A stretch of 32,000 bases of DNA from Gemmata obscuriglobus (GCF_008065095.1 NZ_CP042911.1:8640001-8672000); one strand, 5' to 3'. Counted from the first letter of the stretch, positions 1,447 to 19,513 are shown. Program-made: numbers and translations. The notes: a model not told the origin generated them from the letters alone.

Positions 1447-2703
1447 CAGTAGTTTCAAGTTGGCGGCTTGGTTTTGTTGGCCGATCGTGCAGTAGTAATG
1501 GACTTATTTTCGCCATCTGTAGGTGCCAGCCCATCGGCCAACAGTATCAGGCATACCGCCGCCAGTGTCCACCCGAGGCCGCGGGCTGAGCGGGACCACA
1601 ACCAGGCGTTACGCAGGATCAGCCCGACGGCCACCCACAGGAGTCGCACGACCCCATCGGTAGTCGAGGTCCGGGGCCGAACCTGCCCCAACTGGCGGTA
1701 GCTGCTCTCGATCCCGAATCGGGTCCGGTACAGGTCCCGAATCGCCACCGGGCTCCCGCTCACCCGCCACGCCGCGTACAGTAACTTCTTGCTCCGCCGG
1801 CCCCCGGTCCGCCGGTACCGGTAGCTCTTGTGAGCGATCACCACGTGCACCCGCACCGAGGTGCCCCGATCCGCGTGGGTGTACGCATATCGACCCGCGC
1901 CCCGCCGCCGCACGGCCCGCAACCCGACCCCCTTCACCCCGGGCCGGGGCTTGCGGCCCCGGACCACGGCCGGGATCACGAACGGCACACCCCGCGCCTG
2001 GAGCAACCGCATCACCGCGATCGAGAAGAACGCCTTGTCCAGCAGCGCGACCCGGACCGTAACCCGTGCCGCCGTCACCTGATCCAACAGCCGGGTGAGC
2101 ACCGCGGTCATCGGCTCCTTCTCGCCCACGGCCGTCAACCCGAGCGTGTACCGGTCCGGTCCCCCGACGAGGCACGCGGTGGCGTACGTGTGGAACGTGT
2201 GGGTGCCGCCGGCCCCCTTGGACCGGGTGGTGTCCCGGTTCGGCGTCCCGAAGTACCCGATCCGGTGGTAGTCGATCGCGACCCGAGCCGCCCGCTTCCG
2301 CTTGCCGAGCGGGGCGTGGAGGGCCGGCCGCAACCGCCGCTCGAGGGTGCGGCGCCGCTTGGGCAGCGTGAGGTACAAGCAATCCCAGATGGCCTGCCCG
2401 GACGGGGCGTCGGCGATCGCGGCACAGGCCGCGGCCACCGAGCGGGCGAACGCCGCGGCGAACAGCACCACCCGCCACACCACCTCGGGTGTACAGGTGC
2501 GGCGACGCTTGGGCAGTTGGACCGCACGGCCGAGCCAGTCGGTCAGGACCGGACGGAGGTGCCGGGTGGCGTGGGCCGGGGTGGCTCGGATAGACTGACG
2601 TTTGGGTCGCATGGGGGCTCCGACAGTGGAGGCGTGGTAACCACCATTGACCGGTAAACCCATGCGGCCCGCTACTCATAAATCGCCCAACTTGAAACTA
2701 CTG
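1447..2703 (-). mobile_element. Complete IS element (IS4-superfamily, ISH3-like), 1257 bp
   Basis: Perfect 17-bp terminal inverted repeats: CAGTAGTTTCAAGTTGG at 1447-1463 and its reverse complement at 2687-2703. They are flanked by a 5-bp direct repeat GATTT (1442-1446 and 2704-2708). A single transposase ORF fills the element. Confidence 0.8.
1455..2663 (-). CDS. DDE transposase of the 1447-2703 IS (402 aa maximal ORF; alternative ATG at 2612)
   Basis: Lies entirely between the TIRs. Motifs LLDKAFFSIAVMRLLQARGVPFVIP and YRTRFGIESSYRQLGQ resemble IS4/ISH3-type DDE transposases (recalled pattern YR.RWGIE..Y). Confidence 0.7.
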   Translation of the reverse strand: MGLPVNGGYHASTVGAPMRPKRQSIRATPAHATRHLRPVLTDWLGRAVQLPKRRRTCTPEVVWRVVLFAAAFARSVAAACAAIADAPSGQAIWDCLYLTLPKRRRTLERRLRPALHAPLGKRKRAARVAIDYHRIGYFGTPNRDTTRSKGAGGTHTFHTYATACLVGGPDRYTLGLTAVGEKEPMTAVLTRLLDQVTAARVTVRVALLDKAFFSIAVMRLLQARGVPFVIPAVVRGRKPRPGVKGVGLRAVRRRGAGRYAYTHADRGTSVRVHVVIAHKSYRYRRTGGRRSKKLLYAAWRVSGSPVAIRDLYRTRFGIESSYRQLGQVRPRTSTTDGVVRLLWVAVGLILRNAWLWSRSARGLGWTLAAVCLILLADGLAPTDGENKSITTARSANKTKPPT

Positions 2704-3696: not shown

Positions 3697-4029
3697 CTTC
3701 GGGGCTCGATTACAACGCCATGCCACGCCCCGCGCCCGTCCGCCGACGGCCTGGGGCACATTGCCGCGCCATTACCTTCGAATCTTCGGTGCCGAAACAC
3801 CTGCGCCGCCATCGCGCGTCCGATTAAAAATCTTATTTTTTCTATTTTGTTGATTCTTTTAATTTATTGATTGCAATCCGCTCACTCTGTGAGCGGTTGC
3901 TCCGCGGCCCCGGTTCGCTCCTCGTGCGGCCGGTCTGGCTACTGTGCGCAACGCACCTCCGAGCCCCAAAGCGACCGCCACGGAATGAGCGGCGCGGCAC
4001 TCAACGGCCAGAAACGCACGGCCGCCACA

Positions 4030-4054
4030 CCAACTTGAAACGACTGGATTCGGT
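4030..4054. repeat. Solo copy of the right TIR of the 1447-2703 IS family
   Basis: CCAACTTGAAACGACTGGATT at 4030-4050 versus the IS right end plus flank CCAACTTGAAACTACTGGATT (2687-2707) is 20/21 identical. I saw no matching left end or transposase nearby. Confidence 0.6.
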
Positions 4055-8332: not shown

Positions 8333-11305
8333 TTACTTCTGAACTGGCTCTTTGTCCATCGCGCTCATCTCGGCGGTCTCCTTCTTCGACTGCCACCACG
8401 CCCACAGCACCGCCAGCCCCGCCACGCCCGCGACCGCGGCGCCCACGGTCCAGTTCCCGGCCCCGTCCTTCACGTTGTGCATCATCACCAGCGGCAGCGC
8501 GAGCAGGCTCACCATGTTCATCACCTTGATGAGCGGGTTGATCGCCGGGCCGCTCGTGTCCTTCAGCGGGTCGCCGACCGTGTCGCCGGTGACGCTCGCC
8601 TTGTGCTTCTCGCTGCCCTTACCGGTGTTGCGTTCCTTGTCCCTCGGCTCGTCCTCGATCATCTTCTTGGCGTTGTCCCACGATCCGCCCGCGTTCGACA
8701 TGAACACCGCCATGAGCTGGCCGGTGAGGATCATCCCGGCGAGGAACCCGCCGAGCGCGAACGGCCCCAGCAGGAAGCCCACCACGAGCGGCGTGCCGAT
8801 CGCGAGCAGCCCGGGGCCGATCAGCTCGTGTTGAGCGGTCGCCGTGCAGATCGCCACCACGCGCCCGTAGTCCGGCGTCTTCGTGCCCGCCATGATCTCG
8901 GGGTCGCGGAACTGCTTGCGACACTCGAACACGATCAGGTACGCCGCGCGCCCCACCGCGCGAATGGTCATCGCGCTGAACAGGAACGGCACCGCGCCGC
9001 CGATCAGCATCCCGATGAACACCAGCGGTTCGGCGACGGTGAGCTTCGAGGCCCCTTGCGTGAAATCGCCGATCAGGAGCTGGCCGATCTTCTCCTCGGA
9101 GCCGGTCACCAGCACCGCGATGAAGCTGGCGAACAGCGACACCGCCGCAATCACCGCCGAGCCGATCGCCACGCCCTTGGTAATGGCCTTTGTGGTGTTC
9201 CCGACGGCGTCCAGGTCGGCGAGGATCTGCCGCGCGTCCGCGTTCTCGGCGTCCGGCATGAACCCGGGTTCACCGTCTTTCAAGTTCTGGCCGTTCACGT
9301 CACGGTTGAACGACATCTCGCCGATGCCGTTCGCGTTATCGGCGATCGGGCCGAACACGTCCATGCTGATCGTGTCGCCGGTCAGCGTGAGCATCCCGAT
9401 GCCGGTCATCGCGACCCCGAACGCGAGGTACAACAGGTTCTGCGAGTCGCCGCACACCGCAACCGCAGCGAGGATCGCGCCGGAAATAAGGAGCACCGCC
9501 CACACCGAGCTTTCGAGGCCGAGTGCCAGGCCCGAAATGATGTTGGTCGCGTGCCCGGTGCTGCTGGCCCGCACCACCTCCCGCACCGGACTGTACTCGG
9601 TGCTGGTCCAGTACTCGGTACACTTGTTGAGCAGCACCGCGAGCAGGATGCCGATGAGGCAGCACCACGCGACCGCCAGGTTCAGCCCCGGCCGCAGCGG
9701 CACGTGGTACCGGGCTTGCGCCAGTTCGAGCAGCGTCGCGGTCGCACGCAGCTCCCCGTCCTGGGCCACACGACGGGTCCGCAGGTCGGTGACGAGTTGC
9801 AGTTCGTGCTCGCCCCCGGCCGCGGCCACCTTGACCCGGCGCTGCGCGAGCTGGTCGCGCGCCTCGGGGGCGAGCTTGCGCCACACCGCCAGCGCGTCGG
9901 TCCGGTGCCGGTCCACCTCCGCTTCCAGCGCGACCGTTTTCGGGGCGCTCCGCTCGGCCCCGCTCCGCAGGTCGCGCAGCTCCTTCACCTCGGACGCCAC
10001 GGTCCGCGGGCCGGCGTGCGTGAGCCCCAGTTCGGCGCGCAGGTCGGTGTTGTCGAACAGCTCCTGGTACATCCCGCGGTCGATGCCCCGCTCCACGATG
10101 TAGGCCGCGTCGAACCGCAGATAGATGAGGCCGAACAGCATGAACCCGAGGGTGCTGATGACCGCACTGCGCCAGAACCCGCGGTTGATCGCCCCCATCG
10201 CGGTCGAGCTGCTGCCCGTCGTCATGCCGGCACCGACCAGCGACGTGCTGATGACGCTGGCGACCACGCCCACCGCCTGCACGAGCAGCGGGAAGATCAT
10301 CCCCTTGAACCCGAACGCCGCGTACCCGAGCATCACCGCCGCCACCATCGTGACCGAGTAGCTCTCGAACACGTCGGCCGCCATCCCGGCGCAGTCGCCG
10401 ACGTTGTCGCCGACGTTGTCGGCGATGGTCGCGGCGTTCCGCGGGTCGTCCTCGGCGATGGACTGCTCCACCTTCCCGACGAGGTCCGCGCCGACGTCGG
10501 CGGCCTTGGTGTAAATCCCACCGCCCACGCGCATGAACAGCGCCAGAAGGGACCCGCCGAACCCGTAGCCGATCAGGATCTCGTAAGCCAGTTCGCCGAA
10601 CACGAGCAAGATGAGCGTGCCGCCGAGCAGCCCCAGCCCGCAGGTGAACATGCCCGTGATGGTGCCGGTCTTGTACGCCAGCCGCATGGCGGCGCCGAAG
10701 TTCGCCCTCGTGTCGCCGGCCTCGCGCCGCGCGCGGGCGGCGGCGGCGACGCGCAGGTTGCCCGCCGTGGCGAGCCGCATCCCGGTGAAGCCCACCGCGG
10801 CCGAGAAGAGAGCGCCCATCAGGAACGCCACCCCGCGCCCGACCGCGATCGTCTTCAGCTCGTCGATCGAGTGCATCCCGGGCTCGGCCTCCCACGGCCA
10901 CTTCGACGCGATGATGACGCCCGTCAGCAGCACGATCAGCACGCCGACCACCGCGAACTGGCGTCGAAGGTAGGCGTTCGCCCCCTCGCGCACCGCCTGC
11001 GCGACCTTCTGCATCGCCGGCGTGCCGGTGTCGGCCGCGTACACCTCCTTCATCAGCCGGGCGGCGTACACGAGCCCGCCGACCGCGACCGCGAGGCACC
11101 CGAGCAGGCCGAGCTTCTCACCGAACCCGTAAGCGCCCGACGTAAGAAACGCGAACGGCTCCCAGGCGGAGCCGAACACGGTCCAATCGGCAGTCGGGCG
11201 GCCCGAGAAGTCGCCCGCCCCGAGCAACCCGATCGGGAGGGCGCAAACGACGAGCAGCAGCCACGGGAACCGCGGCCGGCGGGCGCGAGAGCGAGAGAGG
11301 GACAT
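8333..11305 (-). CDS. hppA: Membrane-bound H+-translocating pyrophosphatase, K+-independent type, 990 aa
   Basis: Family motifs GGGIYTKAADVGADLVGKVE, DNVGDNVGDCAGMAADVFESY, TEYWTSTEYSPVREV, GHATNIISGLALGLES, DAVGNTTKAITKGVAIGSA, SNAGGSWDNAKK, GDTVGDPLKDTSGPAINPLIKV. The Lys in GNTTKA (codon 9188-9190) is the known marker of K+-independent enzymes. Confidence 0.92.
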   Translation of the reverse strand: MSLSRSRARRPRFPWLLLVVCALPIGLLGAGDFSGRPTADWTVFGSAWEPFAFLTSGAYGFGEKLGLLGCLAVAVGGLVYAARLMKEVYAADTGTPAMQKVAQAVREGANAYLRRQFAVVGVLIVLLTGVIIASKWPWEAEPGMHSIDELKTIAVGRGVAFLMGALFSAAVGFTGMRLATAGNLRVAAAARARREAGDTRANFGAAMRLAYKTGTITGMFTCGLGLLGGTLILLVFGELAYEILIGYGFGGSLLALFMRVGGGIYTKAADVGADLVGKVEQSIAEDDPRNAATIADNVGDNVGDCAGMAADVFESYSVTMVAAVMLGYAAFGFKGMIFPLLVQAVGVVASVISTSLVGAGMTTGSSSTAMGAINRGFWRSAVISTLGFMLFGLIYLRFDAAYIVERGIDRGMYQELFDNTDLRAELGLTHAGPRTVASEVKELRDLRSGAERSAPKTVALEAEVDRHRTDALAVWRKLAPEARDQLAQRRVKVAAAGGEHELQLVTDLRTRRVAQDGELRATATLLELAQARYHVPLRPGLNLAVAWCCLIGILLAVLLNKCTEYWTSTEYSPVREVVRASSTGHATNIISGLALGLESSVWAVLLISGAILAAVAVCGDSQNLLYLAFGVAMTGIGMLTLTGDTISMDVFGPIADNANGIGEMSFNRDVNGQNLKDGEPGFMPDAENADARQILADLDAVGNTTKAITKGVAIGSAVIAAVSLFASFIAVLVTGSEEKIGQLLIGDFTQGASKLTVAEPLVFIGMLIGGAVPFLFSAMTIRAVGRAAYLIVFECRKQFRDPEIMAGTKTPDYGRVVAICTATAQHELIGPGLLAIGTPLVVGFLLGPFALGGFLAGMILTGQLMAVFMSNAGGSWDNAKKMIEDEPRDKERNTGKGSEKHKASVTGDTVGDPLKDTSGPAINPLIKVMNMVSLLALPLVMMHNVKDGAGNWTVGAAVAGVAGLAVLWAWWQSKKETAEMSAMDKEPVQK

Positions 11306-11522
11306 TACAGTGTCCTGGCGCTTGGGTCTTGGCGGTCCGAGCCGTTCGGTCGCGAGCGGAAAGAGCGAAAGCCCACCGTTCGGCGGTCTCGACCGGAACA
11401 GCGCGGGGCTTGTAACAAGCTGTCACAAACCCCAGCAAGGGTGGTAAGAATACTCTGTGAAGAACGCGCCGTCTACTCGCCAGATTCGGACATTGTGGAC
11501 GCCACTCCGAAGAAGAAGCGGA

Positions 11523-15031: not shown

Positions 15032-16153
15032 TCACCCGCCTGACCGTAGGCAAATTTGCGCGAGCGCCCACGCGGCGGCTTCGCGGATCGTTTCTTCGGA
15101 ATCGGTGAGCGCCTGCTCCAGCGCCGGAACGGCCCGCGAGTCGCCGATGTTACCTAAAACGATGGCGGCGTTCCGCAGGAGACCGGGCCGGCGGTTGCGA
15201 AACAGGGACGTTTTCTTGAAGCGCTTGCGAAAGGCGTCGGCGTCGAGCCCAAGGAGTTCAATCGGGTCGAGCCAGGCCAGTTCCGGGTCGTGCGGGAACG
15301 CAACGGTCCGCTCGCCCGCGTTCCGGTTCCAGGGGCACACGTCCTGGCACACGTCGCAGCCGTACAGCCAGTGCCCCATCGGCTCGCGGAGTTCGACCGG
15401 AATTTCCGACCGCAGCTCGACGGTCAAATAGCTGATGCACTTGCGCGCGTCGAGGACGTAGGGCTCGGTGAACGCGCCGGTCGGGCACGCCTCAAGGCAC
15501 CGGGTACAGGTTCCGCAGTGCGAAGAGGTAGCAGGCGGGTCGGGTGCCAGTTCGAGGGTCGTGAGAATCGCGCCGAGGAAGAAGAAGCTCCCGCGGCGGG
15601 TGTTAATGAGCATCGTGTTCTTGCCGACCCACCCCAACCCAGCGCGCCGGGCGAAGTCGCGTTCGAGAAGGGGGGCGGTGTCGGCGACCGCTTCGGTGCG
15701 CGATCCGGGCACCTGCTCTTCGAGCCACGCCGCGAGGGCGTTGAGCCGGTCCCAGATGTAACGGTGATAGTCCGGTCCGGCGGCGTAGGCGGCGACCCTT
15801 CCGAAATGCGGAGTGCGGAATTCGGAATGCGGAACAGCAGAAGGGGAATTCGTGCTGCTCGTTTCGCCTTTCTCTTGGGTTTCGTTTTCACTCCGAATTC
15901 CGAATTCCGCACTCCGCACTCCACTATATTCGAGACCCACCATCAACACGCTGCGCACGTCGTCCAGCACGCTCCGCGGGTGCTGTCGCTCCGCCCGCAA
16001 CTTGGGCAGGTAGCTCATTTCGCCGGCGAACCCGCGGTCGAGCCACACCGCGAACCGCCCGAAGCCGTCGGCGTCGGTCGCGGGGGCGATGCCCGACAGT
16101 GCGAACCCCAGCCGCGCGGCCTCGGCCTTCAGACGCTCTTCGATGTCACCCAT
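15032..16153 (-). CDS. queG: Epoxyqueuosine reductase
   Basis: MGDIEERLKAEAARLGF..., GPDYHRY, LGWVGKNTMLIN, GSFFFLG, CGTCTRCLEACPTGA, DARKCISYLTVEL, YGCDVCQDVCPWNR, then HEAT-like C-terminus LRNAAIVLGN. Start trimmed to ATG 16153. The longer ORF crosses the 16220-16291 hairpin. Confidence 0.88.
   Translation of the reverse strand: MGDIEERLKAEAARLGFALSGIAPATDADGFGRFAVWLDRGFAGEMSYLPKLRAERQHPRSVLDDVRSVLMVGLEYSGVRSAEFGIRSENETQEKGETSSTNSPSAVPHSEFRTPHFGRVAAYAAGPDYHRYIWDRLNALAAWLEEQVPGSRTEAVADTAPLLERDFARRAGLGWVGKNTMLINTRRGSFFFLGAILTTLELAPDPPATSSHCGTCTRCLEACPTGAFTEPYVLDARKCISYLTVELRSEIPVELREPMGHWLYGCDVCQDVCPWNRNAGERTVAFPHDPELAWLDPIELLGLDADAFRKRFKKTSLFRNRRPGLLRNAAIVLGNIGDSRAVPALEQALTDSEETIREAAAWALAQICLRSGG
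15807..15918. repeat. Heptamer-armed hairpin element inside the queG reading frame
   Basis: TGCGGAGTGCGGAATTCGGAAT at 15807-15828 is the perfect reverse complement of 15897-15918 (22-bp stem, 68-nt loop). The arms are tandem 7-mers (AATGCGG AGTGCGG AATTCGG AATGCGG). Confidence 0.9.
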
Positions 16154-16219: not shown

Positions 16220-16291
16220 ATTTTGACAGGATCGACAGGATTTCAAATTGATCTATCTTCATCCTGTTTATCCTGTCGATCCTGTCAAAAT
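16220..16291. repeat. Hairpin element with 9-nt tandem units between the ADP-ribosylglycohydrolase gene and queG
   Basis: ATTTTGACAGGATCGACAGGAT at 16220-16241 is the perfect reverse complement of 16270-16291 (22-bp stem, 28-nt AT-rich loop). The unit ATCCTGTNN repeats three times on the right side. Confidence 0.85.
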
Positions 16292-17329: not shown

Positions 17330-18472
17330 TCAGTTTAACGGAACGAGCTTCCGCCCCGTGGCCCATTTCTTCTCGGCGGGCGCCTGGCGCACCACCTCGT
17401 TGTACAGCGTGTCGCGCTCGACCGGCACGCGGCCCGCCTCCTCGATCAGCCGCCGCAACTCGCGGACCGTCAGCTCCTGCGGCGAATCGCTCCCGGCGGC
17501 GTGGTAAATCGTCTCGTGGACCACCGTACCGTCGATGTCGTCCGCCCCGTAGCTCTGCGCCACCTGCGCCACCTTCACCGTCAGCATCTGCCAGTACGCC
17601 TTGATATGCGGGAAGTTGTCCAGCATCAGCCGCGCCAGCGCCATCACCTTCAGGTCCATCAGCCCGCTGGGCTTCGGGATGTCCTTGCCGAGCGGGTTGT
17701 TCGTCGGGTGGAAGGCCAGCGGGATGAACGTCTGGAAGCCGCCCGTCACGTCCTGAAGCTCGCGCAGCCGGAGCATGTGGTCGAGGCGGTGCTCCGCGGT
17801 CTCGATGTGCCCGTAGAGCATCGTGGCGTTCGACTTCCCGCCCAGCTCGTGCCACTCGCGGTGGACCCGCAGCCACTGGTCCGCGTCGGCCTTATAGTCG
17901 CAGAGCTTCGAGCGCACCTCGGGGTGGAAGATCTCCGCCCCGCCGCCGGGGAGCGAGCCGAGGCCCGCCTCCTTCATCTCCGCGAGCAGCTCCTTCGTGG
18001 GGCGCTTCGTGATGCGCTCGAACCAGTCCCACTCCACCGCCGTCCACGCCTTCAGGTGCAGGTCCGGGAACTCGCGGTGGATGCTGCGGATGATGTTGAG
18101 GTACCACTCGTACGGCAGCAGGTGGTGCAGCCCGCCGACGATGTGCAACTCGGTAGCCCCCTGGGCGCTCGCCTCGCGGGCGCGCTGGAGGATCTGCTCG
18201 TCGGTCATCACGAAGCCGGACGGCGACTTCAGGTCGGCCCGGAACGAGCAGAACGCGCACCGGTAGACGCACACGTTGGTCGGGTTCAGGTGCTGGTTCA
18301 CGTTGTAATACGTGACGTTGCCGTTCTTCTTCTCGCGGACGAAGTTGGCCAGTTCGCCGAGGGTGAACGGGTCCGCGTTCCGGTCGAGGAACAGTCCGTC
18401 GTCGAACGTGAGTCGCGTGCCCGAATGGACCTTGTCGCGAATGTCGGCGAGCCGGGCTGCGGTCGTGGTCAT
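17330..18472 (-). CDS. mqnE: Radical SAM futalosine-pathway enzyme, aminofutalosine synthase-like (MqnE; MqnC not excluded)
   Basis: Start trimmed to MTTTAARLADIRDKV (ATG 18472, GGAG upstream). NPTNVCVYRCAFCSF radical-SAM cluster motif, GATELHIVGG, NATMLYGHIE, YGADDIDGTVVHETIYHAAG. Confidence 0.65.
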   Translation of the reverse strand: MTTTAARLADIRDKVHSGTRLTFDDGLFLDRNADPFTLGELANFVREKKNGNVTYYNVNQHLNPTNVCVYRCAFCSFRADLKSPSGFVMTDEQILQRAREASAQGATELHIVGGLHHLLPYEWYLNIIRSIHREFPDLHLKAWTAVEWDWFERITKRPTKELLAEMKEAGLGSLPGGGAEIFHPEVRSKLCDYKADADQWLRVHREWHELGGKSNATMLYGHIETAEHRLDHMLRLRELQDVTGGFQTFIPLAFHPTNNPLGKDIPKPSGLMDLKVMALARLMLDNFPHIKAYWQMLTVKVAQVAQSYGADDIDGTVVHETIYHAAGSDSPQELTVRELRRLIEEAGRVPVERDTLYNEVVRQAPAEKKWATGRKLVPLN

Positions 18473-18481
18473 GTGCGCTCC

Positions 18482-18574
18482 GAGTTCCGGGTTCCACGTT
18501 CCGGGCGTCACAAGTCGAGACCCGGGCGGGGCCGGCGCCCGGTCGGAACCTGGAACCCAGAGCCTGGAACGCTC
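18482..18574. repeat. Imperfect heptamer-armed hairpin in the mqnE leader
   Basis: Left arm GAGTTCCGGGTTCCACGTTCCGGG (18482-18505). Right arm GGAACCTGGAACCCAGAGCCTGGAACGCTC (18545-18574). The units GTTCCNN and NNGGAAC are complementary. A nested GC hairpin GACCCGGGCG...CGCCCGGTC lies at 18519-18544. Confidence 0.6.
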
Positions 18575-18730
18575 CACGATGTTTTATCGCTCCCCGCGCT
18601 AACCGCAATCGGCGCCGGAGGGTTAACCCGTATCTCCGGCACGCGATAAGCCCGGAACTCTGGGCGAACTGATTGAACCCGCCGGGTTATGGCGCAGAAT
18701 CGGGTTGGTGCGCGCATTTCAACGCGAACA

Positions 18731-18848
18731 CAGTAGTTCCAAGTTCCAGGTTCCAGGTTCCAAGTTGGTAACGGCTCGGCAAAAGCCCGGGCAATTCGTG
18801 TGCCTCAGCTTTCACGTGGAACTTGGAACCTGGAACTTGGAACGACTG
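18731..18848. mobile_element. 118-bp MITE-like element related to the 1447-2703 IS
   Basis: Left arm CAGTAGTTCCAAGTTCCAGGTTCCAGGTTCCAAGTTGG (18731-18768). Right arm CACGTGGAACTTGGAACCTGGAACTTGGAACGACTG (18813-18848) is its imperfect reverse complement. The termini match the IS TIRs. Flanks are GAACA / AAACA. Confidence 0.6.
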
Positions 18849-18871
18849 AAACAGGCATCACGGAGGCTCTC

Positions 18872-19513
18872 ATGCGCAAGTTGCTACTGGCGGCGGTGCT
18901 CGCGGGCGGTGGGCTGGTGGGTGCGGCGGGCACTGCGGACGCGCAGTACCGCCACCACCGGCCCCACCAGCCGGTGGTCAGCTCGGTGACGTGGCCGTCG
19001 GCGAACCCGCCGGGCTGGTACACCAGCACGTACAAGCACCAGTGGTTCTACCCGTGGTACGCGTACTACGACTTCAGCTACGGCCCGTACGCAAACTGGG
19101 CCGCGAGCGGCGGGTACGCCGGGTACTCGTACCACGGCCCGGCCGGGTACTACAACTACCCGCTCAGCGGGCACACGAGCGGCGACGCCGCGCCGGCCGC
19201 GCCGAGCACACCGGCCGAACAGAAGGACGCGCCGAAGGCCGACCCCGGGACGGCAGCGGCGGAGGTGGCGGTGACCCTGCCGGCCGACGCGAAGCTGCTG
19301 TTCAACGGCGCCCCGGCGGCCGGGACCGGCGCGGTCCGGACGTTCCGCACGCCGGAACTCCAGAAGGGCGTAAGCTACCGGTACGAACTCACCGCGGAGG
19401 TGGCCCGCGACGGGCGCACCGAGCGCGTCACTGAGACGGTGGTGGTGCGGGCGGGTGAAACCGCACAGGTGACCCTCGCGCCGACCGGCATCGCGACCGC
19501 CGGCGCGAAGTGA
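18872..19513 (+). CDS. Secreted TIGR03000-domain (Planctomycete-type) protein
   Basis: Signal peptide MRKLLLAAVLAGGGLVGAAGTADA, a Tyr/Trp/Gly-rich middle, and C-terminal VTLPADAKLLFNGAPAAGTGAVRTFRTPELQKGVSYRYELTAEVARDGRTERVTETVVVRAGE matching the recalled TIGR03000 pattern. GGAGG lies 6 nt upstream of the ATG. Confidence 0.75.
   Translation: MRKLLLAAVLAGGGLVGAAGTADAQYRHHRPHQPVVSSVTWPSANPPGWYTSTYKHQWFYPWYAYYDFSYGPYANWAASGGYAGYSYHGPAGYYNYPLSGHTSGDAAPAAPSTPAEQKDAPKADPGTAAAEVAVTLPADAKLLFNGAPAAGTGAVRTFRTPELQKGVSYRYELTAEVARDGRTERVTETVVVRAGETAQVTLAPTGIATAGAK

Follow-up and report, generated by a model that had tools for sequence, protein, structure and literature searches.

A miniature foldback element with heptamer-repeat arms and insertion sequence-like tips upstream of a TIGR03000-domain gene in Gemmata obscuriglobus

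Background

The Foldback (FB) elements of Drosophila, described by Truett, Jones and Potter in 1981, reportedly possess long inverted ends (TIRs) that consist of tandem subrepeats in variable number, with unique tips and a variable centre. In bacteria, MITEs derived from insertion sequences (ISs), such as MITEAba12, Correia/NEMIS and Nezha (PMC10969869), are small, non-coding, intergenic and polymorphic, and they have IS-like TIRs and target duplications of the length made by the IS. The BrickBuilt MITE of Porphyromonas gingivalis (PMC4596501) is also intergenic and carries a tandem array between small inverted ends. Tandem 7-nt units are known from intergenic DNA as well, and they cross phyla: (GGGAATC)n in Xanthomonas, the STRR of cyanobacteria and TAACTGA in Beggiatoaceae. 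The Xanthomonas heptamers most often occur as four units, form about 70 inverted convergent pairs per genome that are able to fold into stem-loops, and were reported as unconnected to insertion sequences or transposable elements (PMC4692102). How the heptameric intergenic repeats originate or spread is not known (PMC4692102, PMC4679880).

Here, we describe a 118-bp element of G. obscuriglobus located in the window, by which we mean the whole stretch of 32,000 nucleotides that was analysed. Like the IS-derived MITEs, the element is small, non-coding, intergenic and polymorphic, with IS-like TIRs and a target duplication of the IS length; unlike them, its TIRs consist almost wholly of four tandem 7-nt units, and its interior is unlike any other copy seen. 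BrickBuilt has a one-way 23-nt minisatellite inside, whereas the 7-nt arrays of the Gemmata element are its inverted arms and the whole folds back. In architecture it is closer to the FB elements than to BrickBuilt, although FB elements are eukaryotic, kilobase-sized and dependent on a different enzyme, and the likeness is one of architecture, not of membership. The element also has the features of a heptameric simple repeat, with at least two tandem 7-nt units in intergenic DNA as an inverted pair. What sets this hairpin apart from the published heptamer repeats is that it was found as an insertion, with a duplicated target and IS-like tips.

A foldback element between mqnE and a TIGR03000-domain gene

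The element lies between two divergent genes, and the features of the region are as follows.

17330-18472, minus strand: mqnE (aminofutalosine synthase; TIGR03700, 526 bits), divergent, ATG at 18472
18673-18700, plus strand: putative promoter-like block TTGAAC-16 nt-CAGAAT, conserved in five orthologous regions
18726-18730: left target duplication GAACA, present as a single GAACA at the empty site of Gemmata sp. JC717
18731-18848: foldback element, 118 bp, non-coding, with 35-nt inverted arms and a 48-nt loop
18731-18765, plus strand: left arm (TIR), tip CAGTA followed by GTTCCAA GTTCCAG GTTCCAG GTTCCAA at 18736-18763
18766-18813: loop, 48 nt, unique, with a small stem of its own in RNA and DNA folds
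18814-18848, plus strand: right arm (TIR), YTGGAAC four times at 18816-18843 and then tip GACTG; reverse complement CAGTCGTTCCAAGTTCC
18849-18853: right target duplication AAACA, which shares 4/5 bases with the left copy
18862-18866, plus strand: Shine-Dalgarno GGAGG, before the TIGR03000 ATG at 18872
18872-19513, plus strand: TIGR03000-domain gene (NCBIfam TIGR03000, 98 bits), 213-aa product in all assemblies

Together with the bases that follow it, the left arm reads CAGTA-GTTCCAA-GTTCCAG-GTTCCAG-GTTCCAA-GTTGG (18731-18768), and the right end, ...AACTTGGAACGACTG to 18848, can be read as GTGGAAC TTGGAAC CTGGAAC TTGGAAC GACTG. The tips are CAGTAGTT and CAGTCGTT. The inverted repeat formed by 18731-18765 and 18814-18848 (35 nt) is 91% complementary, and TRF assigned a period of 7 to the arms, with 4.6 copies on the left and 3.9 on the right. 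The double heptamer GTTCCARGTTCCAR occurs 7 times in the window vs. 0.04 expected, and GGAACNNGGAAC occurs 9 times vs. 0.13 expected. The predicted folds of the element region are very stable (RNA, -74.1 kcal/mol, z = -7.2; DNA, -40.5 kcal/mol, z = -8.5), and no shuffle equalled either of them. Only spurious ORFs cross the 118 bp, the annotated gene beginning at 18872. The size, the lack of coding capacity and the heptamer composition of the arms were thus all as an earlier note on this DNA had read them, and so was the position 24 nt upstream of the TIGR03000 gene start. The insertion point is about 30 nt downstream of the promoter-like block. The loop matched nothing among all other fetched loci, and a search of about 85 kb of further DNA from G. 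obscuriglobus yielded no second copy of the element.

The element was inserted with a 5-bp target duplication

The earlier note had taken GAACA and AAACA for a 5-bp target duplication and had named an empty site as a check. Such a site is present in the sister strain Gemmata sp. JC717, which reads ...caacgcGAACAggcatc... where the window reads ...caacgcGAACA[118 bp]AAACAggcatc.... The flanks match JC717 at 41/41 positions on the left and 51/52 on the right, and they overlap by exactly 5 nt, GAACA, which bears out the duplication and demonstrates a real insertion. The right copy of the duplication differs from the left by one substitution. Blastn placed the breakpoints at 18730 and 18850 of the window, with flanks that are 97.2% and 95.9% identical. 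In JC717, MqnE is 99% identical and the gene order is unchanged, while the mqnE-TIGR03000 spacer measures 276 bp vs. 399 bp in G. obscuriglobus. The element is also absent from three further genomes (L127, L128 and L130, with MqnE 96%, 92% and 91% identical), and the window sequence is identical in G. obscuriglobus assemblies GCA_000171775.1 and CP025958.1. The absence of the element from JC717 and from three more distant relatives indicates a gain in G. obscuriglobus and not a loss in JC717.

We consider it very probable that the element is a transposed insertion that is or was mobile. It falls within the size range of MITEs (about 50-600 bp) and has no transposase gene, and it shows inverted ends, a duplication, polymorphism and IS-related TIRs. 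The MITE-like reading of the earlier note was therefore supported: the element is small and non-coding and has inverted ends, its 5-bp duplication is real, and a sister strain shows the site without it. The 118-bp element is a genuine miniature foldback transposon (MITE). As a structured insertion of 118 nt in a leader, it is also a marker that separates G. obscuriglobus from JC717.

The tips of the element resemble the ends of a resident IS family

The window also contains an IS and a solo IS end, which are listed here with relatives of the IS.

1447-2703, minus strand: resident IS, 1257 bp, DDE_Tnp_1 transposase (ISH3/IS4-like), perfect 17-nt TIRs CAGTAGTTTCAAGTTGG
1442-1446 and 2704-2708: target duplication GATTT of this IS
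4030-4046, minus strand: solo IS-type right end CAGTCGTTTCAAGTTGG (CAGTCG...), flanked by GATTC
Relative in another Gemmata, 83% transposase identity: TIRs CAGTAGTTTCAAGTAGG / CAGTAGTTTCAATTTGG, duplications AACTC / AAATC
Paralog, 70% transposase identity: TIR CAGTAGTTTCGTGTTGG
Relative, 65% transposase identity: TIR CAGTAGTTTCAAGTTTG, duplication AACTT
Relative, 47% transposase identity: TIR CAGTACTTCCCAGTTCG at both ends, duplication AAATT

The transposase ORF of the resident IS encodes 402 aa (385 aa in the annotated form) and matches Pfam DDE_Tnp_1 above threshold. With ISH3/IS4-type ISs it has in common a DDE transposase, a single ORF, a 5-bp duplication and TIRs of short length. In ISfinder, duplications of 4-5 bp are given for ISH3 members, whose ends are typically GGT; the resident IS, unlike ISH3, ends in CAGT.... 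Its score for the ISH3 model NF033541 of NCBIfam was 157.4 bits vs. a cutoff of 225, too low for assignment to ISH3. Four further, identical copies in G. obscuriglobus are likewise 1257 bp long with perfect TIRs (duplications AACTC, GAATC, GATTC and AATTC), so that 5 of the 5 copies examined have a 5-bp duplication. The TIRs across the family (CAGTAGTTTCAAGTWGG, CAGTAGTTTCGTGTTGG, CAGTAGTTTCAAGTTTG and CAGTACTTCCCAGTTCG) gave the consensus CAGTA-sTTyCmA-GTTsG, that is, CAGTA plus one heptamer-like unit, which is kept down to 47% transposase identity.

Compared with the IS end CAGTAGTTTCAAGTTGG, the left (CAGTAGTTCCAAGTTCC) and right (CAGTCGTTCCAAGTTCC) ends of the element were identical at 14/17 ungapped positions. 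On the left, the first 8 nt are the same as in the IS TIR, as are 14 of the first 15; the right end agrees with the solo IS end at 4030-4046 at 14/15 positions, which confirmed a figure of the earlier note. The match of the tip to the TIR CAGTACTTCCCAGTTCG of the 47% relative is also 14/17, its TTCC included. Matches to the IS end with at most 3 mismatches are expected only 0.02 times per window, although the IS-specific part of the element is only 5 nt per end (CAGTA and CAGTC) and the heptamer itself could supply the rest. The earlier note had also collapsed the heptamer array into a 16/17 match to the IS TIR. The identity of the first 8 nt and the 14/15 match stood, but the collapsed match needs GTTGG, which the right arm lacks.

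Further miniature elements derived from these IS ends exist in G. obscuriglobus and JC717, namely the solo end at 4046, a left end CAGTAG at L142 18349, a 54-bp mini-element at L142 18295 and a MITE in JC717. Their left ends read CAGTAG and their right ends CAGTCG, an asymmetry that the hairpin has as well. The MITE is located as follows.

L126 12457-12668: MITE of JC717, about 212 bp, IS-like ends CAGCTATTTCAATTTCG / CAGTCGTTTCAACTTCG, duplication GATCT

It contains internal CCGCTCACTCCGTGAGCGG palindromes, and the orthologous site of G. obscuriglobus is a reciprocal empty site. All of the IS and MITE insertion targets examined fit RAWTY, the fourth base always being T and the fifth C or T, and GAACA, the target of the foldback element, departs from it.

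The length of the element's duplication, which the earlier note had equated with that of the IS, proved to be 5 bp throughout the IS family. Because of the shared A-left/C-right asymmetry and the equal duplication length, mobilisation in trans by the IS family is the best explanation for the element. Judged from the sequences, we assign a probability of about 0.6 to the reading that it was moved in trans by the transposase of the resident IS or of a close family member. The transposase of a CAGTA-ended DDE IS would recognise the tip CAGTAGTT plus a heptamer-like unit, make a 5-bp staggered cut in the target, and cut and paste the element in trans. The insertion into the 5' leader of the TIGR03000 gene took place within the G. 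obscuriglobus lineage. The four GTTCCAR units per arm may be repeats of the unit next to CAGTA in the IS end, and the element offers a natural system in which to ask how additional sub-terminal binding units affect transposase binding.

Heptamer arms with and without the IS-like tips

In a scan of metagenomes, CAGTMG plus three heptamers matched 7 loci with 5 distinct sequences. One of them (L132) has tips on both ends (CAGTAG...CTACCG) and four units per arm. A contig whose proteins are closest to Vicinamibacterales (L133/L138) carries, in 12.5 kb, three long hairpins whose arms have about 11 units each; CAGTA-GTTCC starts two of these and CAGTGTG-GTTCC the third, and the other side is GTC-GTTCC in all three. 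One of the L133/L138 tips lies outside the selection imposed by the search pattern, which indicates that the tip genuinely belongs to that family. CAGTA-tipped heptamer hairpins thus occur also outside Planctomycetes, and all of those found besides the element itself came from other organisms. In L134, L135/L137 and L136, a tip was found at one end only, and these matches are probably due to chance. A comparison of heptamer numbers, which the earlier note had proposed, could be made between the tipped elements: the same CAGTA tip occurs with four units in L132 and about 11 in L133/L138, and such very different numbers are what the idea of an expanded TIR predicts.

The same unit, however, is far more widespread without the tip. 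A scan of public genome contigs for three GTTCCAR units (GTTCCARGTTCCARGTTCC) gave at least 120 loci (L001-L120), and those listed came from Acidobacteriota, Planctomycetota, Verrucomicrobiota, Bacteroidota, Deltaproteobacteria, Methylomirabilis, CPR lineages and others. Among the matches listed, most are one-way arrays of 3-19 units (19 in L074), and about one quarter are inverted pairs. Neither CAGTA nor CAGTC precedes any of the approximately 148 array ends in the at least 120 genome loci listed, and AAGTT after the last unit is the usual end of a GTTCCAR array. Four hairpins from Gemmataceae MAGs (L045, L050, L108 and L096) have identical arms, (GTTCCAGGTTCCAA)x2, and unrelated loops, with neither CAGT tips nor visible duplications. 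A scan of viral contigs for CAGTMGTTCCARGTTCC yielded 24 matches, all of them chance occurrences in coding or unrelated repeat DNA. No description of the GTTCCAR unit was found in the literature searched, where matches to the sequence string were only primers and signal-peptide linkers.

Heptamer-armed hairpins without IS-like tips also occur in G. obscuriglobus itself, one of them in the same intergenic region.

18482-18570: older hairpin, an inverted repeat whose arms are degenerate GTTCC heptamers, in the leader of mqnE directly 5' of the start codon
15807-15925 of the window, L126 13006-13125 (in JC717), and L142 at 7876, 11218 and 15339: KCGGART hairpins

The older hairpin lies 160 bp from the element and has no CAGT tips; its RNA fold is -68 kcal/mol (z = -5.0), and GCTCC flanks it flush at 18477-18481 and 18571-18575. 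It is present in JC717 and in L127 (the 96% relative) and absent in L128 and L130. In JC717, two G-to-A differences in this hairpin keep G-U pairs on the mqnE-sense strand. The KCGGART hairpins (AATGCGG AGTGCGG AATTCGG) represent a second heptamer-armed family, with at least 5 copies in about 117 kb of G. obscuriglobus and no IS-like tips, and their DNA fold is -38 kcal/mol with z = -6.

Heptamer hairpins that lack CAGTAG/CTACTG termini, whose genome-wide occurrence the earlier note had set down as evidence that the match to the IS is coincidental, were thus found in many phyla and in the intergenic region of the element. The tip-less GTTCCAR arrays and the KCGGART family show that the heptamer array is not a private expansion of the TIR of this IS. 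The idea of the earlier note that the arms are an expanded IS TIR therefore fared unevenly: it is favoured by the varying heptamer number behind the same tip elsewhere, but not by the wide occurrence of tip-less GTTCCAR arrays and hairpins. The arms may have arisen by slippage inside a TIR, or IS-type tips may have been joined to a pre-existing heptamer hairpin. On the present comparison, either a hairpin of an already existing kind acquired IS-type tips, or the IS end and the hairpins go back to a common older source.

The same observations bear on whether the IS family moved the element at all. Heptamer-armed hairpins could be an independent mobile class that depends on a different enzyme, one that also duplicates 5 bp of target, with the IS-like tips being coincidental or convergent. 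First, they are widespread without IS-like ends. Second, both the older mqnE-leader hairpin, with its flush GCTCC, and an acidobacterial hairpin (L001 6256-6543), with a perfect flush 5-bp repeat TATCT, lack CAGT tips. Third, GAACA does not fit the RAWTY preference of the IS. Against this, the tips of the element share 8/8 terminal bases with the IS, the A/C asymmetry between left and right is that of the IS-derived miniature elements, and its duplication is as long as those of the IS family. Moreover, only one or two of the 28 heptamer hairpins tested, L001 included, have flush 5-bp repeats; target duplications are not general among heptamer hairpins, and with flush repeats so rare, transposition of tip-less hairpins is not established. 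An independent class is thus a serious explanation but, in our view, an unlikely one, and mobilisation in trans by the IS family is preferred.

The element in the leader of the TIGR03000 gene

Since the insertion lies between the promoter-like block and the start codon, the element is probably part of the TIGR03000 mRNA leader. If transcribed, it would fold into an RNA stem of 35 bp with the Shine-Dalgarno sequence outside it; in the predicted RNA fold, the stem is self-contained and the Shine-Dalgarno sequence is unpaired. A 35-bp RNA duplex would be a plausible substrate for RNase III. The TTGAAC-16 nt-CAGAAT block scores below the threshold of the consensus scanner, and the promoter scan detected no sigma-70 consensus signal in the intergenic region.

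Several other roles were considered and rejected. No intrinsic terminator was found by the scanner in 18400-18900, where the stem is followed by GACTGAAACAGG and, on the other strand, by TGTTCGCG. The best Rfam match, MtlS, reached 22.7 bits vs. a gathering score of 80. A reading of GGAAC as an ECF sigma -35 element has no -10 element at the right spacing. The heptamer GGAACCUG is identical to the loop of 16S rRNA helix 45, and a 7-mer match of this kind is expected by chance; a role through that loop was rejected, the relation being identity and not complementarity.

A selected cis element, either a 5'-UTR RNA hairpin acting through stability or RNase III or a protein-binding GGAAC array that controls the TIGR03000 gene, would make the transposon-like appearance secondary. 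This explanation agrees with the position between the conserved promoter-like block and the Shine-Dalgarno sequence, with the very stable stem, and with the many related hairpins that lie a few nucleotides from start codons. In addition, G-to-A changes in one arm in JC717 and L017 preserve G-U pairing on the strand that carries the neighbouring gene, although this wobble evidence comes from two loci only, and the TAACTGA heptamers of Beggiatoaceae have been proposed as sites for a translational regulator (PMC4679880). However, the element is absent from the leader in four relatives in which the gene and the promoter block are conserved, so it is dispensable there, and it has no Rfam match, no terminator and no sigma-70 promoter signal. 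Arrays are found within 30 nt of ORF starts in 21% of cases vs. 18% for random positions, the control being crude. We therefore regard selection as a cis element as an improbable account of the element.

A purely local origin, in which a heptamer microsatellite expanded by slippage and gave rise to an inverted copy through template switching, is very improbable. Bacterial intergenic DNA is enriched in heptameric repeats, which form inverted pairs in Xanthomonas (PMC4692102), and one-way GTTCCAR arrays reach 19 units. Yet the JC717 site lacks any heptamer, and the 118 bp, the 5-bp duplicate, the inverted CAGT tips and the unique loop all appear at once. HUH/Y1 transposition (IS200/IS605, RAYT) is not known to make target duplications. 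A REPIN-type origin, in which a RAYT tyrosine transposase moves paired REPs with GTAG tags, is hardly credible: the tip does contain GTAG (CA-GTAG-TT), Gemmata genomes do carry REPIN-like doublets (e.g., JC717 L126 11150-11345) and GTAG-tagged REPs have been reported in Planctomycetes (PMC3733652), but the arms are tandem heptamers instead of 20-40-nt palindromes, a 5-bp target duplication is present, and GTAG is merely part of the DDE IS terminus.

Possible implications for heptameric repeats

Mobilisation in trans by a DDE transposase, the reading that we prefer, would give heptamer hairpins a definite and testable way of multiplying and of passing between lineages. A far broader proposal would be that the GTTCCAR (NNGGAAC) arrays and hairpins across phyla are the footprints of foldback transposons spread by one DDE IS family that recognises "CAGTA + heptamer" ends; we put this forward as speculation that is more probably wrong than right by a wide measure. 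If it were true, the excess of heptameric intergenic repeats and the inverted four-unit pairs of Xanthomonas would reflect transposition and not slippage or a shared regulator. Interest in the element would grow if a genome-wide census linked heptamer hairpins generally to this transposase family.

Other repeats and conserved blocks

Several further repeats were observed in the window and in related loci. A small GTTCC cluster, GTTCCGGTTCCGGAGTTCC at 2709-2727, begins directly after the right duplication of the resident IS, and the other IS copies are without such neighbours. Upstream of the solo IS end there is an AT-rich stretch (3822-3880) in this 67% GC genome, and GATTC at 3852-3856 and 4047-4051 could be the duplication of a decayed 190-bp element with an unrecognisable left end. 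L142 18295-18365 contains a 54-bp mini-element with the IS-like ends CCGTAGTTTC...GCAAACTACGG, directly followed by an IS-type left end, CAGTAGTTTCAAGTTCG, that runs into GGTTCTGGTTCTGAG sub-repeats. In JC717, an approximately 165-bp REPIN-like insertion with two inverted GTAG-tagged palindromes (GTAGCACAGGGCGGGAGCCCTGTGCGGCC) lies between mqnE and the following gene (L126, about 11150-11345) and is absent in G. obscuriglobus.

Between queG and an ADP-ribosylglycohydrolase gene, the hairpin at 16221-16290 has arms of tandem 9-nt units, ATCCTGTCG (TRF, 2.9 copies), and its JC717 version has an inverted loop and carries an IS-end MITE. The intergenic block 18581-18640 (gtgttttatc...gctaaccgcaatcggcgcc.gag.gttaaccc) is strongly conserved in five Gemmata-like orthologous spacers, has no Rfam match and may be an mqnE promoter or regulatory site. 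The KCGGART copy at 15807-15925 lies in frame inside queG (15032-16153, minus strand), where it covers residues 76-117 approximately, which recalls the Rickettsia palindromic elements. Another KCGGART copy is split by an IS whose target, AATTC, falls within the array.
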